Shown here: positions 7,471 through 22,958 of the stretch, in pieces
Numbering within the stretch: position 1 is the stretch's first letter
How the letters are laid out: each line of letters starts with the position of its first letter
IMG/VR virus record: IMGVR_UViG_3300042463_000956
Span: 1 to 64,000 of that record
Length of the DNA: 64,000 bases
Source of the DNA: an uncultured virus (IMG/VR IMGVR_UViG_3300042463_000956)
Taxonomy: Duplodnaviria > Heunggongvirae > Uroviricota > Caudoviricetes
Direction: 5' to 3' (one strand)
Position numbers and translations under genes: made by a program
Notes under the pieces: generated by a model
Told to the model about the DNA's origin: nothing
Seen by the model: only the letters and a program-made list of their open reading frames with translations
The model's database searches: none

Positions 7471-9291
7471 ATGAATCAAACAATAGTAGAAACCGTATTT
7501 GAAAATAACATAACACCAGAATTAACCGTAGCACTTCCAGTTTACAATAGTAAAAGTATTGCTTGGATAGCTATAGAAAGTTTATGTGAACAAATCAATA
7601 TTGATTTTAATTGGGAATTAATTGTTTATGAAGAAAAACACGCACAATCTGTTTTTCCAGAACTAATTGATTTGTATATTGAAAAACTAAAATCCGTTAA
7701 TTGTTCAAGGATTATATACATAACAAATAATGAAAAAGTTTCATTAGTTGAAAAATGGATTGAAATTGGAAAAAACGTAAGTGAATCATCAAAATGTTTT
7801 TTACTTCAGGCTGCCGATTGTTATTCACCAAAAACAAGACTTAAAATAAGTTATGAAAAAATAGTAAATGAAGACTATGATTGGTATGACCAAACAAAAG
7901 GTTATTTCTATTCATTTATAAGTGATAGAGTTATTTTATACGACTATAAAGGTTTTACAAATCTTAATATGTCACTAAAAACGGAATACATCAAAACATT
8001 ACCGTTTTCACCATTAAAAAAGGGTATTGATGGGTACATATATAATCACTCAATAATTTCTTGTAAACAAGCTTCCAGAAATTTCAGAAGATATTTTGAT
8101 GATGAATTATATAATGATAGTGTTGATACACACGGTCATAATAATATAAGTCATGCCAGAGAATCATACTTTGATACAAAACCAAACATCTTTTCAAAAA
8201 CAAATTTAAGTGTTAATGACTTAGATTGGAATATTAATATAAAAAATTCAATAGATTCGACATCCATATACGAACTTACAATAATAATATCAACATATCT
8301 AAACACACAATATCTAGAAGAGTGTTTTGGTTCTATTATTAATTCAATTGGTGAAAAGAAAGTACAAGTCTTAGTTGGTATTGATTCTTGTTTAGAATCC
8401 AAAGAACATATTGAATCACATAGTTATCCAAGTTATTTTGAGTTTTTCTTTTTTGAAAAAAACAACGGGCCTTATATTGTGTTTAATACCTTATCTAAAT
8501 TAGCACTTTCAAAAAACCTTTTATTTTTTGGTTCAGATGATATTATGAATTTAAATATGGTTGAGGATTCGATTAATGGTCTTATGACCCACGACTGTGT
8601 AAAACCATATTATACAAATTTTATCGATGGAAAACCTTTTGATTCACAAACAAAAAAACACGTTGGTGAAGGTGTGTTTGCAATAAAAAAAGACATATTT
8701 GACTATATGAACGGGTTTGAACCCTGGATGTGTGCGGCAGATTCTGATTTTATGGCAAGATTATATGGTTTAAAACAATATAGATTTAAATTCACAAATA
8801 AAATTAATTTTTATAGAAGAATACATAAAAATGGTTTAACAAGTAGACCAGATACTGGTATGGGGTCAAAATTAAGGGCTCACTATGGAACTTTAGCAAG
8901 ACAAAGAAATTCTATTGGACCAATACAGAATATGGTGGTTGAACCATATGTTATAGTTCACCAACAAACACTAACAACACCAAGAAAAGAAATTACAAGT
9001 CCAAATATACCAAGAGCTGAAAAAAACATATCACCTTTAGCTTTACTACAAAATAAAAATTCCGAACCACAACCTATCAGGAACTACGTAAAACAAGAAG
9101 TTAAACAAACACCAAAATCACAAATAAAAGAAAGACCACCGATTAGTCAAGTAAAACAAGACTCCGAAACAGAAAAACCAATAGACAAAAATTCATTGGC
9201 AAATAAAGCAAAAGGTGTTTCAGTAAATAAAAAACCACAAACCCCAAAAGGTAAAGATTTTAATATTGGTAAAGATTCTTTAAGGATTTGA
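7471..9291 (+). CDS. Tandem GT2-like glycosyltransferase with a low-complexity C-terminus
   Basis: Two GT-A starts (LTVALPVYN; LTIIISTY), DxD-like FFGSDD, GFEPW..ADSDF. The ATG at 7471 is a likelier start than 7444. Confidence 0.75.
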   Translation: MNQTIVETVFENNITPELTVALPVYNSKSIAWIAIESLCEQINIDFNWELIVYEEKHAQSVFPELIDLYIEKLKSVNCSRIIYITNNEKVSLVEKWIEIGKNVSESSKCFLLQAADCYSPKTRLKISYEKIVNEDYDWYDQTKGYFYSFISDRVILYDYKGFTNLNMSLKTEYIKTLPFSPLKKGIDGYIYNHSIISCKQASRNFRRYFDDELYNDSVDTHGHNNISHARESYFDTKPNIFSKTNLSVNDLDWNINIKNSIDSTSIYELTIIISTYLNTQYLEECFGSIINSIGEKKVQVLVGIDSCLESKEHIESHSYPSYFEFFFFEKNNGPYIVFNTLSKLALSKNLLFFGSDDIMNLNMVEDSINGLMTHDCVKPYYTNFIDGKPFDSQTKKHVGEGVFAIKKDIFDYMNGFEPWMCAADSDFMARLYGLKQYRFKFTNKINFYRRIHKNGLTSRPDTGMGSKLRAHYGTLARQRNSIGPIQNMVVEPYVIVHQQTLTTPRKEITSPNIPRAEKNISPLALLQNKNSEPQPIRNYVKQEVKQTPKSQIKERPPISQVKQDSETEKPIDKNSLANKAKGVSVNKKPQTPKGKDFNIGKDSLRI

Positions 9292-9683: not shown

Positions 9684-10121
9684 ATGAAGAAAAAGATAAG
9701 ACTAACGGAATCTGAATTAATAAGACTTATTAAAAGGATTATTGAAGAAGAAAAGTACTCCGAAGAAGATATCAAGTACACCCACCCAATGACAGGTGAA
9801 GCCTGTAAAATCAAAGTTGCCAGAAATAAACTTACAAGTATGGAATTTAACCAATATGGGTCAATTCTTGTTTGTGTTGATGAAGAATATGGTGATGATA
9901 GAATTGAAGCTGAACTTCCAGTAAATGGAAGTACATCAGAAGAAGTTAGTGATTTTATATGTGAAAACTTAGAAAGGACATTTGAACTTTTAGATGATAT
10001 GTTAACTTACGAAGAAGAAGAACCAATATCAGAAGAAGTTTATAGTCAAAGGTGGGATATAATAGACCAACCAATTGTTTGTACAGACAAACCAAAAAAG
10101 AAAAAAAGTTGGGAATATTAA
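9684..10121 (+). CDS. Hypothetical protein with MKKKIRLTESELIRLIKRIIEE leader
   Basis: ORF preceded by GATATTTAT; conserved N-terminal motif. Confidence 0.75.
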   Translation: MKKKIRLTESELIRLIKRIIEEEKYSEEDIKYTHPMTGEACKIKVARNKLTSMEFNQYGSILVCVDEEYGDDRIEAELPVNGSTSEEVSDFICENLERTFELLDDMLTYEEEEPISEEVYSQRWDIIDQPIVCTDKPKKKKSWEY

Positions 10122-10152
10122 TAAAAACACTTGTTTATTAGAAAAAAATACC

Positions 10153-10160
10153 TATCTTTG
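10153..10160 (+). promoter_or_regulatory. Bacteroidota-type -7 promoter element TAnnTTTG. Others at 10907, 13661, 14093, 14846, 15758, 18430, 20070, 20293, 24025, 33417 and minus strand 51175-51182
   Basis: Recurrent TATCTTTG-type octamer just upstream of genes or tRNAs, usually with TTG/TTTG about 20 nt upstream. Confidence 0.75.
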
Positions 10161-10208
10161 TAACAGAAATTAAAACTTTTAGAAATAACGATATACTTAT
10201 AATAAAAA

Positions 10209-10316
10209 ATGAAAACAAATCTTAGACATATGGTCATTAGCAAGCAACCGAGCAATCAGTGGTCGTTCTGCTATAATACGCTTAAACCGTCTAGGGCATT
10301 TTCATTTATGAGTTAA
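10209..10316 (+). CDS. Leader peptide 1 (35 aa, MKTNLRHMVISKQPSNQWSFCYNTLKPSRAFSFMS) of a putative attenuator
   Basis: ATG after an A-rich RBS-like stretch and TATACTTATA; unusually many C/G-ending codons; stop codon lies inside a hairpin that competes with the downstream terminator. Confidence 0.75.
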   Translation: MKTNLRHMVISKQPSNQWSFCYNTLKPSRAFSFMS

Positions 10317-10346
10317 TAACGATTAACCAACATAATAAAGGAATAT

Positions 10347-10377
10347 AAGACCCAAGGCAACAAACCTTGGGTTTTTT
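10347..10377 (+). terminator. Intrinsic terminator of attenuator 1
   Basis: AAGACCCAAGG-caacaaa-CCTTGGGTTTT plus T tail, just upstream of tRNA-Thr. Confidence 0.85.
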
Positions 10378-10388
10378 GTTTTATACCT

Positions 10389-10471: not shown

Positions 10472-10488
10472 GTTCTTTGACATATTGG
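10472..10488 (+). promoter_or_regulatory. boxA-like antitermination element GTTCTTTGA. Also at 13518, 14121, 20329 and minus strand 22911-22923
   Basis: The same 9-mer precedes tRNA runs, the long ncRNA and the tmRNA; resembles rrn boxA. Confidence 0.65.
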
Positions 10489-10567: not shown

Positions 10568-10576
10568 CAATAAATT

Positions 10577-10665
10577 GGAAGTCTAATTTAGCCGGCGCTA
10601 AACCTAGTCTTGAAAACTAGTGGTACTGAAACACGTATGGGGATCGACACCTCAGGCTTCCTCCA
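10577..10665 (+). tRNA. tRNA-Ser(TGA)
   Basis: Loop CT-TGA-AA, long variable arm, encoded CCA. Confidence 0.85.
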
Positions 10666-10673
10666 AAAAATAA

Positions 10674-11087: not shown

Positions 11088-11088
11088 A

Positions 11089-11189
11089 AGATACAATGTT
11101 GGGCTCCCCGTAGTGGTAACGTCTTAAGTAAGTAGACCACAAGAATCTAGTAAGAAGTGACAGATGGGTTCGTCACGACTAAAGTATCT
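11089..11189 (+). ncRNA. Unknown structured RNA in the tRNA array
   Basis: Closing stem AGATAC/GTATCT; internal stems GTCT/AGAC, TAGT/ACTA, GTGAC/GTCAC; GC-richer than the genome. Confidence 0.45.
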
Positions 11190-11193
11190 AATT

Positions 11194-11266: not shown

Positions 11267-11270
11267 CTAC

Positions 11271-11354
11271 GGAAGATAAACCTTGATGGAGATAGGGTCC
11301 ACCTGCTAAGCGAGATGTACCTTCGGGTATTTGGCTCGATTCCAATATCTTCTT
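11271..11354 (+). tRNA. tRNA-Ser(GCT), divergent
   Basis: Acceptor GGAAGAT/ATCTTCT, loop CT-GCT-AA, variable arm TACC-TTCG-GGTA; anticodon stem has mismatches. Confidence 0.6.
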
Positions 11355-11360
11355 CAACTT

Positions 11361-11430
11361 GCCGATAGAAAAGGTTTTCGGTCCGGGCTCATATCCTGGA
11401 TGTCATTGGGTTCGATACCCTTTATCGGTA
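11361..11430 (+). tRNA. tRNA-Met/Ile2(CAT) with a reduced D arm
   Basis: CCGGG-CT-CAT-AT-CCTGG; acceptor GCCGATA/TATCGGT. Confidence 0.6.
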
Positions 11431-11437
11431 CTTATAT

Positions 11438-11511
11438 GGTGTATGTAGCTCAGTTGGTAGAGTGCTGGATTGTGATTCCAGAGGTCGTGGGATCGTGACC
11501 CATCATACACA
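11438..11511 (+). tRNA. tRNA-His(GTG)
   Basis: CTGGA-TT-GTG-AT-TCCAG; encoded G-1. Confidence 0.9.
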
Positions 11512-11590: not shown

Positions 11591-11755
11591 AAAAGATGAT
11601 AAAAGGCGTAGAACAACGGACACGGAGAGGTGTTCGCAAGGGTGCAAACTAAGGATAGGTATTCAATCTTAATTGTATTGATGTAATAACCCGACTCTCT
11701 AATGGTGTGTGAAGTATAATTACGGGATTCCTGATAAAGTTGTTCATCATCTTTT
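11591..11755 (+). ncRNA. Unknown ~165-nt structured RNA
   Basis: Terminal stem AAAAGATGAT/ATCATCTTTT, inner GAACAAC/GTTGTTC, hairpin GGACAC/GTGTTC; no convincing ORF. Confidence 0.5.
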
Positions 11756-11759
11756 ATTT

Positions 11760-11831: not shown

Positions 11832-11869
11832 CGGATCCGATGTCGGTCCCGAGCTAGGTCGGGCAATTT

Positions 11870-11940
11870 ACGTGGTACAGACAGGGCGTCGGGCAGGTCT
11901 CCAAAACCTCGCCGGGTAGGTTCGATCCCTACACCACGTG
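11870..11940 (+). tRNA. tRNA-Trp(CCA), atypical D arm
   Basis: AGGT-CT-CCA-AA-ACCT; acceptor ACGTGGT/ACCACGT; G73. Confidence 0.75.
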
Positions 11941-11949
11941 CTAAAATAA

Positions 11950-12706: not shown

Positions 12707-13045
12707 ATGAAAAAAATTATAAGACTAACAGAATCAGATTTAGCTCGTATTGTTAAACGAGTAATCCAGGAAGGAAATATTGAAAAATCATCAAAGGAAA
12801 AAGACCTTGATGTTAAGATGGAAAATTTCCGAGATAAAATAAAAGATTTTTTAAAATCTAAAGATTGTAAAGTAAAACAAGTTGGAACCGATTTTGAGGT
12901 TCATTGTGATGGAGAACACGTAGGTCAAGTTATGTTTAGAAGAAATGCTATTACAGTAAAAAAAGAAGGTAGTAGGTTTGGAAAAGATTTTAAATTTAAC
13001 GAAATGGGTGATATTAAAGCTGAATTATCAAAAATGTTAAAATGA
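12707..13045 (+). CDS. Hypothetical protein with MKKIIRLTESDLARIVKRVIQE leader
   Basis: ORF after ATATTTATA; leader DNA shares 44 identical nt with the next gene. Confidence 0.8.
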   Translation: MKKIIRLTESDLARIVKRVIQEGNIEKSSKEKDLDVKMENFRDKIKDFLKSKDCKVKQVGTDFEVHCDGEHVGQVMFRRNAITVKKEGSRFGKDFKFNEMGDIKAELSKMLK

Positions 13046-13326
13046 AAAAAGTAATCAGACTAACAGAATCAGATTTAGCTCGTATTGTTAAACGAGTAAT
13101 TCGGGAAAACGAAGAAAACAAATTTGACTTCTATATGGAAGAACTAGGTGAATTTGCAAATAAACTTGATTGGGAAGGTCTTGATATTGAAAGTGAGGAA
13201 ATGGAATATTTTGTTGATGACATATATCAGATAGTTTATGACGCAAAACAAGATGATACTTTATCTAAAGACGAAATTTCTCACATTGAAGGATTTGCTA
13301 TGGGTATTGTTAGTAGATTAGATTAA
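13042..13326 (+). CDS. Acidic hypothetical protein with MKKVIRLTESDLARIVKRVIRE leader
   Basis: ATGA overlap with the previous gene; shared leader. Confidence 0.8.
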   Translation: MKKVIRLTESDLARIVKRVIRENEENKFDFYMEELGEFANKLDWEGLDIESEEMEYFVDDIYQIVYDAKQDDTLSKDEISHIEGFAMGIVSRLD

Positions 13327-13393
13327 AAAATTAAATAAAACTTGACACTTTTAAAATTATTAGTATATTTATAAAAAAATTAAAAAACCGCAA

Positions 13394-13462
13394 ATGAAAA
13401 ATTTACACATATCATTGATAGGAGGCGATTTAGCTGAGGATTCTTTCAAGGAGAGGGTGTAA
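13394..13462 (+). CDS. Leader peptide 2 (22 aa, MKNLHISLIGGDLAEDSFKERV) of a putative attenuator
   Basis: Follows TATATTTATA; its 3' end GAGAGGG (13451-13457) is complementary to the terminator arm CCCTCTC (13491-13497). Confidence 0.75.
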   Translation: MKNLHISLIGGDLAEDSFKERV

Positions 13463-13486
13463 TATTTTATACATATAAAAATTTTG

Positions 13487-13517
13487 AAGCCCCTCTCTAA
13501 AAAAGAGGGGTTTTTTT
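13487..13517 (+). terminator. Intrinsic terminator of attenuator 2
   Basis: AAGCCCCTCT-ctaaaaa-AGAGGGGTTT with a T7 tail, followed by boxA and tRNA-Leu(TAA). Confidence 0.85.
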
Positions 13518-13542
13518 GTTCTTTGAAATATTGGTGAATAAT

Positions 13543-13625
13543 GGTCCGATGTTGGAATTGGTATACAAGACAGACTTAAAATCTGTTACCCATTGGGTGT
13601 GAGGGTTCAAGTCCCTCTCGGACTA
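13543..13625 (+). tRNA. tRNA-Leu(TAA)
   Basis: ACAGA-CT-TAA-AA-TCTGT with a variable arm. Confidence 0.92.
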
Positions 13626-13672
13626 CAAAAAATAAATTTGGTAGATTAAAAAATTATTTATACTTTTGTTTT

Positions 13673-14081: not shown

Positions 14082-14142
14082 AATAAAATACATATCTTTG
14101 TAAAACAAATAAGGAAAAGGGTTCTTTGAAATATTAAAAATA

Positions 14143-14224
14143 AAAATCACGGGTGGCTCCCTTAATAGTTAAGGCTGACCTTAAGCATCTGACGTATGTC
14201 TATACAGGGGGTGAAAGTGATTTT
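14143..14224 (+). ncRNA. Unknown ~80-nt structured RNA
   Basis: Closing stem AAAATCAC/GTGATTTT and hairpin CCTTAA/TTAAGG; lies right after a promoter and boxA. Confidence 0.45.
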
Positions 14225-14231
14225 AAAATAT

Positions 14232-14322
14232 TGTGGTTGTAAGAAACGGGAAACTCGTAAAGTGTATCAACCTGTTAAATCAAGATAGTGAAACGAGAGT
14301 TTGATTTAACTACTGAACTACA
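14232..14322 (+). ncRNA. Unknown ~90-nt structured RNA
   Basis: Closing stem TGTGGTT/AACTACA; hairpins ACGGG/CTCGT and GTTAAATCAA/TTGATTTAAC. Confidence 0.45.
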
Positions 14323-14328
14323 AAAAAC

Positions 14329-14438
14329 AGTCAAGTGGCGGAATTGGTAGACGCTGGGAGATAATACTCAAAACTCCTTGGGGTAAGGTGATTTTCACAT
14401 TTATCTCGTGATAGGTTCGAATCCTTCTTTGACTACCA
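14329..14438 (+). tRNA. Atypical tRNA-Leu-like RNA (possible CAA anticodon) with an expanded anticodon/variable region
   Basis: Leu-type D arm GCGGAATTGGTAGACGC, acceptor AGTCAAG/TTTGACT, ACCA end; CTCAAAA loop displaced by an insertion. Confidence 0.5.
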
Positions 14439-14441
14439 TAT

Positions 14442-20251: not shown

Positions 20252-20348
20252 AAAAAGTTCACAAAGTACTTGACAAATCAAAATAAAAGTCTTAACTTTG
20301 TAAAACAAATTCGGAAATGACCGAAAACGTTCTTTGAAAACAAGATTA

Positions 20349-21190
20349 TCCGTTCAGGAGTAAGTAATGAAACTGATAAAGATATTGGGCCGTGTATAGT
20401 CCATAAAATAAACTGGGAAACCAGGATAAAGTGAATCATTTGTGTAAGTGGTTTGCGGTTTAGGTAACTAAACTTGAGTACACAAGCGGGATACCGTTTA
20501 ACCTTTAGTACCGAGGGCAACGCTGTAGGGAAAGTGGTTAAGTGATTGGGCGATGTGGGTCGTCTAGTTGAGGTGGGAACACCAATAGGAATAACTCGTA
20601 GGAATATTGCAAAAAATAGAATTATCCGATTTTATCATTGCGTGTTCCAGTATCATAGGAAACTTAAAACCGAAAGGTATGTTGATGTACAGGTGGTGCT
20701 GTTATTAACCTTGATTCGACCCCACCAAGGGTTAAATCTCGAAGTAGTCTTGAAATATTGAGATGGGGACATTTCACAGAGTAGTTGAGTATCGATTCGT
20801 TCAAAAGATGGGTTGGCTCGGTTGACAGACCACTACTTTGATAATCCACAACACAAATACTTTATGGAAAGTAATAAAACTAAATTATTAACTACAAAAA
20901 GGAAAAGTGTCTGTCAGGTTTGGATGAAAGGTGACTACATAGTAATGAGCCGTTCATTGCACACAAGGATCCCAAGTCTAAGTGTAATTATCCGAAAAAC
21001 CTTTAGTCCCGCAAGGACGAACTGGGGAGGCATCCTCGGAAAGAGTCAAGTAAGATGAGAGTAATTCAAACCTCAAGGAGTGGTAAACCTAAAAGACCGT
21101 CACTGAGAAATACTTTCCAAAAGAAAGTGGATAAGAGTAGAATAAATAATGACTCTAAAGGTTCTCAATAACAGGTGTAATCTCAGCCTT
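20349..21190 (+). ncRNA. Large (~840 nt) noncoding RNA, GOLLD-like
   Basis: GC-richer stretch without a credible ORF, with many GNRA-type hairpins, its own promoter (20293), boxA (20329) and terminator (21226-21253). Size and tRNA-cluster context fit GOLLD. Ends are approximate. Confidence 0.6.
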
Positions 21191-21994: not shown

Positions 21995-22048
21995 TTAGGA
22001 TATCTCCTAAAAAAGAAAACCCACTTCAAAAGAGTGGGTTTTTTAATT
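21990..22048 (+). repeat. 59-bp direct repeat copy 1 (contains a terminator hairpin)
   Basis: Identical to 22459-22517. Confidence 0.9.
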
Positions 22049-22460: not shown

Positions 22461-22517
22461 TAATTAGGATATCTCCTAAAAAAGAAAACCCACTTCAAAA
22501 GAGTGGGTTTTTTAATT
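22459..22517 (+). repeat. 59-bp direct repeat copy 2, abutting the tmRNA 3' end
   Basis: Identical to 21990-22048; AAAACCCACT/AGTGGGTTTT bidirectional terminator. Confidence 0.9.
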
Positions 22518-22907
22518 GGTGGAGGTGGAGGGACTCGAACCCTCGTCCATAATATCCTGTCAGATAAGGACTACACGTTTAGGTTGGTATTTTCTAATAC
22601 CCCAAAATATTTGATTTGTTCTTCACCATCGTAAATCAACAACCAATGGTCCCGAATCGGATTTAGAGAGCCATCCGGTGTGCTCTATCAAACTACGACT
22701 TCTGTTGCTAGGTTATATGTCTGCCGACCCCCCGTTTCCGTAAACTTCTTAAGCTACAGTAACTTCAGAACCTCTTACTAATCCAAGAGTTTCCATTTTG
22801 TTTAGCACATTGCCAGTTGTTTTCTAAGTCAGTTTTTAAAGAGATTAACTCAGTCCCTACGTGCCCTTATTCCTCAGCCGATACCTGTCAAATCCAAAAA
22901 CACCCCC
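22517..22907 (-). ncRNA. ssrA: tmRNA; tag reading frame 22814..22749 encodes (A)GNVLNKMETLGLVRGSEVTVA
   Basis: 5' GGGGGUG pairs with 3' CACCUCC-ACCA including G3:U70; GGAUUUGAC D-loop mimic; T arm GAGGG-UUCGAGU-CCCUC; 391 nt. Confidence 0.92.
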
Positions 22908-22958
22908 ATATTATCAAAGAACTATATATAAATACAAATATAATTATATTTATCTAAT

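Follow-up and report, generated by a model that had tools for sequence, protein, structure and literature searches.

Phage tRNA genes are usually regarded as constitutive cargo. Why, then, would one of them lie behind a promoter-like site, a short open reading frame (ORF), and an intrinsic terminator? The question is raised by a locus in a 64,000-nt stretch of DNA from an uncultured virus (hereafter ‘the window’), which comprises the first 64 kb of the 78.5-kb IMG/VR record IMGVR_UViG_3300042463_000956. As this record is judged to be only ~26% complete, the window stems from a large phage; the DNA runs containing it are lake-water metagenomes, placing its source among large freshwater phages. 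A preliminary description, made from the letters of the window alone, had proposed an attenuator upstream of a tRNA-Leu gene. Here, we examine this element (13342-13626) and argue, with a probability of roughly 0.6, that it is a ribosome-mediated (trp-type) transcription attenuator gating the phage tRNA-Leu(UAA) gene.

At the core of the proposal is a pairing between the last codons of the leader ORF and the 5’ arm of the terminator. We found the sequence GGAGAGGG (13450-13457; ‘strand 2’) to be complementary to CCCTCTCT (13491-13498, within ‘strand 3’), through seven Watson-Crick pairs and one G-U pair. Between this arm and the preceding 108 nt, the most stable duplex reaches -14.4 kcal/mol, a value attained by 0.54% of 5000 dinucleotide shuffles and by one of 659 other 108-nt pieces of the window, and chance is an unlikely source of this complementarity. 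The region 13440-13520 folds at -22.8 kcal/mol (z = -3.37; 1/200 shuffles equal), and the terminator hairpin itself (13486-13514) comprises 11 pairs and a loop of 7. The promoter-like site is the best sigma-70-type match between positions 8000 and 24000 (13342-13369; 11/12). It can alternatively be read as Bacteroidota-style, with TTG at -33 and a TAnnTTT box at -7 (13364-13371); its second box fits the Bacteroidota -7 box apart from the last base. The positions of all parts are collected in Table 1.

Table 1. Parts of the element and other annotated features of the window.
Feature	Position	Strand	Remarks
Promoter-like site	13342..13371	+	TTGACA 13342-13347, 16-nt spacer, TATATT 13364-13369; putative function
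Leader ORF	13394..13462	+	22 codons and stop, ATG start; frame conservation
UUA Leu codon 13	13430..13432	+	proposed sensing codon; 20 nt 5’ of strand 2
Strand 2, antiterminator 5’ strand	13450..13457	+	GGAGAGGG; within last codons of the ORF
Inner hairpin	13465..13480	+	A/U-only, TTTTAT-acat-ATAAAA; between strands 2 and 3
Intrinsic terminator	13486..13517	+	strand 3 13490-13498, loop, 3’ arm 13504-13510, U7 13511-13517
boxA-like 17-mer	13518..13534	+	GTTCTTTGA; directly after the U-tract
tRNA-Leu, anticodon UAA	13543..13626	+	ARAGORN; Rfam tRNA 56.1 bits
‘Attenuator 1’	10140-10388		Bacteroidota-type promoter, 35-codon ORF 10209-10316, terminator 10347-10378, tRNA-Thr 11 nt further on
GOLLD RNA	20777-21189		Rfam
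tmRNA	22517-22907	-	Rfam

Relatives of the element were collected by three routes: homologues of the 101-residue ORF that lies downstream (23 loci, 12 of which carry the element upstream of that ORF), a pattern describing the leader start, and a promoter-only pattern. Counts from the leader-start pattern and from the superfamily scans below refer to the matches listed, and the families are under-sampled. We obtained at least 37 distinct variants, 34 of which form one sequence family, while three are divergent and share the promoter. Since the leader-start pattern fixes the first five codons, their invariance carries no weight; the promoter-only scan, which lacks this bias, returned the same leader start in 29 of 38 distinct matches. 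The promoter-like site is kept in 30 of 31 distinct aligned relatives and absent from one (L006).

Covariation was scored on an unfitted MAFFT alignment of the 34 main-family variants. The antiterminator (strand 2:3) was paired in 95.6% of 272 cells, with compensatory changes at four of eight pairs; none of 500 shuffles reached this score and slid controls gave 45-68%. For the terminator, the corresponding figures were 93.0% of cells, two of eight pairs, none of 500 shuffles, and 42-63%. By this comparative measure, the alternative pairing appears as well supported as the terminator itself. The three divergent variants possess quite different terminators, each with a matching complement in or just 3’ of the ORF tail. 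The folding and covariation checks suggested in the preliminary description thus speak for a terminator/antiterminator switch that depends on the leader ORF.

Folding of nascent transcripts pointed in the same direction. When a transcript is cut just past the 5’ arm, six or more bases of that arm are paired with the ORF tail in the minimum-energy fold of 34 of the 37 variants. For the window sequence, the antiterminator state is predicted to be favored by ~3.4-5 kcal/mol until the 3’ arm emerges, whereupon the terminator state wins. Besides the terminator, an RNAalifold consensus contained a 4-pair helix in which strand 2 could be held and, at the stop codon, a small hairpin. Comparing pairing energies of own and foreign arms within the 37 variants (own -10.27, cross -8.1, shuffled -6.27 kcal/mol; 9.5% of shuffles equal) is a weak test because all arms are C-rich, and we therefore relied on covariation. 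The inner hairpin that had been noted after the stop codon is present, but its conservation is not borne out: 66% of cells are paired across the 34 relatives, compared with up to 73% in slid controls. Two of its six pairs show changes on both sides, and 15 and 13 of 500 shuffles reach its covariation score and its paired fraction, respectively.

Is the leader a reading frame at all? None of the 37 distinct variants loses the frame, which spans 22, 24, or 28 codons, and variants differ in length only by multiples of three. At several Gly, Leu, Ala, Ile, Val, Phe, and Glu codons, the only changes are synonymous, and in the main family the stop codon directly follows strand 2. The second half of the peptide varies freely, partly tracking RNA pairing; as with most leader peptides, the peptide sequence itself appears to be of minor importance. 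Leucine codons stand out: the residue is invariant at the aligned position of codon 13, a UUA or UUG codon lies 19-29 nt 5’ of strand 2 in 34 of 34 variants, and Leu accounts for 15.5% of leader codons (8.0% in long ORFs of the phage). UUA and UUG make up 106 of the 108 Leu codons in the leaders, as compared to 69% genome-wide.

A superfamily scan for ‘U-tract plus boxA’ in viral and metagenome contigs revealed the same ~180-nt layout, in unrelated sequence, before tRNA genes for Arg, Lys, Gln, Ser, Thr, Cys, Asp, Phe, Gly, Pro, Glu, and Asn; together with Leu, tRNA genes for at least 13 amino acids are preceded by such modules in related phages. Among the distinct terminator-boxA-tRNA modules listed from the viral set, 31 of 32 contain an ORF of 12-50 codons ending at the terminator, and a later listed set comprised 49 modules with ORF and tRNA, one with a tRNA and no ORF, and 30 without a tRNA within 150 nt. 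Depending on the family, 2-20% of shuffles yield an ORF at least as long, which gives a Fisher P of 2e-8 for 20 families. The mean pairing energy of a leader with the terminator arm of its own module is -14.1 kcal/mol, compared with -9.5 kcal/mol for arms taken from other families.

Within these leaders, codons cognate to the downstream tRNA recur, and they do so at a characteristic distance. At least one cognate residue was present in 16 of the 16 leaders first compared (Fisher P = 0.005; 0/20000 label permutations), and codon mapping placed the cognate codon usually 18-29 nt 5’ of strand 2. Using a spacing window of 15-30 nt before strand 2, which was set after 17 of 24 families had been seen, 18 of the 24 families have a cognate codon in place under relaxed wobble rules (label permutation expects 6.2, 0/10000; random placement 9.1, P = 0.0002) and 16 under strict ones (5.6 expected, 0/10000, and 8.3, P = 0.0003, respectively). 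The held-out families provide the fair test. A first batch yielded four of seven in place, versus 2.2 by random placement (P = 0.13), a second four of six versus 2.4 (P = 0.12), and both combined 8 of 13, where label permutation expects 3.6 (P = 0.005) and random placement 4.65 (P = 0.03). Before counting, we dropped all Leu-family copies other than that of the window, the ORF-less module L642, a chance match within a coding sequence (L458), and one of each clearly homologous leader pair; among the latter, L531 and L583 would match the spacing window, whereas L617, L667, and L567 miss it. Some leaders are richer in cognate codons, with one tRNA-Phe leader containing six Phe codons and one tRNA-Asp leader three consecutive Asp codons. 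The earlier suggestion that particular leader codons matter is hence strengthened, both by the UUA/UUG codons of the Leu family and by cognate codons at like spacing elsewhere.

The case for recurrence had originally been made from two sequence-unrelated copies of the layout inside the window. The more than 20 additional families detected elsewhere offer a firmer basis, because pairing in the other copy (10140-10380; ‘attenuator 1’) is weak. Its leader resembles those of other families, including a Trp codon at position 18. Its best ORF-to-arm duplex reaches -10.0 kcal/mol and is missing from nascent-transcript folds, and the nearest Thr codon lies just 10 nt upstream of that duplex; we thus rejected it as an equally good copy.

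As initially noted, the U-tract runs into a boxA-like motif, and the tRNA-Leu(UAA) gene comes next. Scanning one genome per prokaryote species for the 17-mer returned at least 121 loci, from which 20 with Bacteroidota titles were picked; in 19 of these 20, the 17-mer is located between the 16S and 23S genes, downstream of the tRNAs encoded in that spacer and some 50-200 nt short of the 23S gene. Ribosomal RNA (rrn) operons carry a spacer boxA at such a position, and from this position and the boxA consensus we take the Bacteroidota spacer motif to be boxA. Judged by sequence, the phage motif and the Bacteroidota spacer motif are one and the same. For Escherichia coli, PMC10931766 describes the part played by boxA and NusB-S10.

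Further copies lie elsewhere in the window. The exact host 17-mer is found at 10472-10488, before tRNA-Gln inside the tRNA array; the copy at 13518 is one base off. Close copies precede an RNA-like stretch that lacks an ARAGORN or Rfam call (14121-14137), the GOLLD RNA (20329-20340, ~450 nt before it and just after a small hairpin at 20310-20325), and the tmRNA (22911-22922, minus strand, at a distance of 4 nt). From this distribution, the phage seems to mark its own untranslated RNA genes with the rRNA antitermination signal of its host. In the 34 relatives, the motif lies within 13 nt after the terminator in 22, and behind an extra promoter box in the other 12. Of 123 motif copies in bacteria (at least 121 loci), three have a hairpin and T-run just upstream and none of these is followed by a tRNA, so no instance of the module turned up among bacteria, in what is a limited sample.

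From these parts we infer leader translation, ribosome stalling, a response of termination, and Nus factor binding, in a sequence as follows. Transcription would start near 13377, and a ribosome would translate the 22-codon leader. Upon fast decoding, the ribosome reaching the stop codon would cover strand 2, allowing the terminator (13490-13510 and U7) to form and transcription to end at ~13517. If Leu-tRNA(UAA) is scarce, the ribosome would stall, with UUA codon 13 (13430) the most likely occupant of its A site, and leave strand 2 free to pair with strand 3 (13491-13498), which would block the terminator. Polymerase could then continue over the host-type boxA at 13518—presumably a loading site for NusB-NusE—into the tRNA gene. 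The net outcome would be negative feedback, in that slow decoding of the codon leads to the tRNA being made. A stalled ribosome reaches ~12-15 nt beyond the A-site codon; when positioned at codon 13, it would cover the upstream partner of strand 2, with strand 2 starting 20 nt downstream.

Several observations count against this reading. With regard to the switch, the 1:2 helix (anti-antiterminator) is weak and imperfectly conserved; in the consensus it amounts to the 4-pair helix, and folds of the leader alone leave 33-100% of strand 2 paired. Codon positions in the leader vary without an excess at the third (4, 5, 7 and 10, 15, 14), so the peptide is weakly constrained and the case for coding rests mainly on frame conservation. 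Coupling of transcription and translation in Bacteroidota is an assumption. RNA-library contigs from four runs leave 13363-13668 uncovered, which says nothing either way. A weakly constrained peptide would likewise be expected if a protein or small ligand set the switch—by way of a riboswitch, an antiterminator protein, or T-box-like tRNA sensing—and the open frame were incidental. A hexamer shared around ORF positions 14-21 by up to 12 of the 24 leader families, in more than one reading frame, also points to a nucleotide-level motif. Yet over the initial 50 nt of the ORF, RNAalifold revealed no conserved structure, and no Rfam family reached its threshold: amino-acid leaders scored below it in the region (Thr 22.1 versus 55, Phe 20.4 versus 55, Trp 14.8 versus 41, His 12.7 versus 49 bits), and no T-box was found among 36 Rfam matches at E up to 10 in 13320-13545, nor window-wide at the gathering score. 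As a ligand- or protein-set switch would moreover leave frame conservation and in-frame cognate codons unexplained, we consider it very improbable.

The downstream context adds to the difficulties. Among the 34 variants, 19 have a tRNA-Leu(UAA) called by ARAGORN in the next 420 nt, and 15 have no tRNA called there. Upon inspection by eye, two of the latter (L127 and L032) seem to harbor tRNA-Leu(UAA) homologues interrupted after the anticodon loop in an intron-like manner, which ARAGORN left uncalled; apart from these, a promoter and a protein gene come next. Where a close relative lacks the tRNA, boxA directly adjoins the following promoter, which has the appearance of clean tRNA loss. Furthermore, 9-11 relatives have a separate tRNA promoter after the terminator. 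This could also be seen if the element were a stand-alone small gene or small RNA with an ordinary terminator, with tRNA and boxA as mere neighbors and the complementarity serving, for example, mRNA stability or translation control; its own promoter, its strong terminator, and the lack of a downstream tRNA in 13-15 of 34 relatives would all fit. However, the covarying 2:3 pairing excludes the terminator, and is therefore without use in a finished, terminated transcript. Of the 19 relatives for which tRNA-Leu was called, 10 lack a promoter box in the terminator-tRNA interval, as does the window, implying that the tRNA there depends on read-through. Together with the poor conservation of the second half of the peptide and the recurrence of the layout before tRNA genes in unrelated sequence with cognate codons, this renders a stand-alone unit quite improbable.

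The remaining reservations concern codon specificity. The leader in the window has no tandem run of Leu codons, merely three dispersed ones. The 15-30 nt spacing window was chosen post hoc, with the first 18 leaders already in view, neither held-out batch is significant on its own, and 6 of 24 families and 5 of 13 held-out ones miss it. A Trp codon occurs in 17 of the 24 leaders whatever tRNA follows, often as codon 18-20, against 1.1% Trp in ORFs of the phage, and the model does not account for it; the 19 tRNAs of the window include no tRNA-Trp. Together with the shared hexamer, it suggests a common ancestry of the leaders or a further signal at the nucleotide level. These points are compatible with a translation-coupled attenuator that is not codon-specific, in which any slowing of the leader ribosome—through shortage of tRNAs or ribosomes, host shut-off, or inhibitors—leaves strand 2 exposed, the Leu codons being incidental. 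Such a device would make equal use of the supported structural switch and ORF, and could be retained where a protein gene rather than a tRNA comes next. But label permutations tie leader codons to the tRNA that follows (0/20000 in the first comparison, 0/10000 over 24 families, P = 0.005 for held-out families), UUA or UUG sits at the expected spacing throughout the Leu family, and some relatives carry runs of cognate codons. We therefore deem an attenuator blind to codon identity unlikely and prefer the codon-specific one. Extending the latter, large freshwater phages of Bacteroidota might control many of their tRNA genes singly, each through an attenuator sensing its own cognate codon, with boxA making the polymerases that pass processive; this wider model is possible, though we hold it tentatively, at slightly less than even odds. 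Per-tRNA circuits of this sort, if real, would make supply demand-driven and could counter a codon-usage mismatch with the host or depletion of host tRNAs.

How does the element compare to known systems? Attenuators of amino-acid operons (trp, his, leu, thr, pheA, ilv) likewise combine a short leader, an intrinsic terminator, and a mutually exclusive antiterminator at the ORF end, with the relevant codons placed such that a stalled ribosome leaves the antiterminator strand free, and the geometry of the element matches the trp attenuator. The principle of leader-peptide attenuation is set out in PMC1183508. Unlike these attenuators, the present element controls a tRNA gene rather than biosynthetic enzymes or a synthetase, is encoded by a phage with a presumed Bacteroidota host, and is followed by boxA; phage modules usually have one to few cognate codons and no long run. 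The accessible part of PMC2965389 names leader-peptide systems, as of 2010, in Proteobacteria, Actinobacteria, and Firmicutes only. T-box riboswitches, too, choose between terminator and antiterminator according to the state of a specific tRNA and thereby set gene expression. However, T-boxes bind uncharged tRNA directly, as structured RNAs of ~200 nt without an ORF, and control synthetase or amino-acid genes, whereas the element has a conserved ORF and no conserved 5’ structure. In rrn boxA and lambda nut sites (NusB-NusE/S10), as in the phage motif, a short single-stranded motif in the nascent RNA lies upstream of structured untranslated RNA genes, yet the phage motif directly follows an intrinsic terminator and precedes phage tRNA, tmRNA, and other RNA genes. 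Antibiotic-sensing leader ORFs of the erm, vmlR, and msrD types also switch a downstream terminator by ribosome stalling; as far as their accessible descriptions go, they sense drug-bound ribosomes and control resistance genes, whereas codon-specific sensing and a tRNA target are suggested here.

A literature search, with most subscription journals outside its reach, found no leader-peptide attenuator before tRNA genes or in phages. As read here, the element is a classical mechanism on a new target class, in phages, joined to a boxA borrowed from the host. If so, a form of feedback through cognate codons that has so far been associated with amino-acid operons and synthetases would extend to tRNA genes; leader-peptide attenuation would operate in phages of Bacteroidota, a group lacking Shine-Dalgarno-led initiation; and phages would borrow the host’s rRNA antitermination signal for RNA genes of their own. 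Being short, numerous, and different in their sensing codons, the modules could serve as a natural set of codon-specific translation sensors.

Beyond the element, the window has a G+C content of 30.9%, and several of its genes are preceded by Bacteroidota-type promoters as judged by eye (a TTTG box and, ~20 nt on, TAnnTTTG). The match of boxA to Bacteroidota spacers also points to a Chitinophagia/Sphingobacteriia-like host. A similarity search against known phages returned only tRNA-sized matches and no relative spanning the element region. According to ARAGORN, the window encodes 19 tRNA genes between 9515 and 15027.

Several neighboring features were noted along the way. A stretch richer in G+C (14150-14440), 3’ of a promoter and the boxA copy at 14121-14137, received no call from ARAGORN or Rfam; part of it (14163-14200) is covered by an RNA-library contig at a depth of 41.7 (run X17), and it may represent a structured RNA of a new type. 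Between called tRNAs, spacers at 10569-10673, 11088-11193, 11268-11438, 11591-11759, and 11833-11949 appear G+C-rich and structured by eye. In the first of them, a terminal CCA follows an acceptor-like stem of 7 pairs; this spacer may harbor a long-arm tRNA overlooked by ARAGORN. Three small ORFs (9684-10121, 12707-13045, and 13042-13326) have a near-identical N-terminal stretch of ~20 residues in common, relatives of which are encoded by 213 viral-contig stretches, making them a small-protein family widespread in related phages. Finally, a 27-base terminator-like hairpin occurs twice on the minus strand downstream of the tmRNA, at 22016-22042 and 22485-22511; the two copies are identical, share their tail, and are spaced 469 nt apart.

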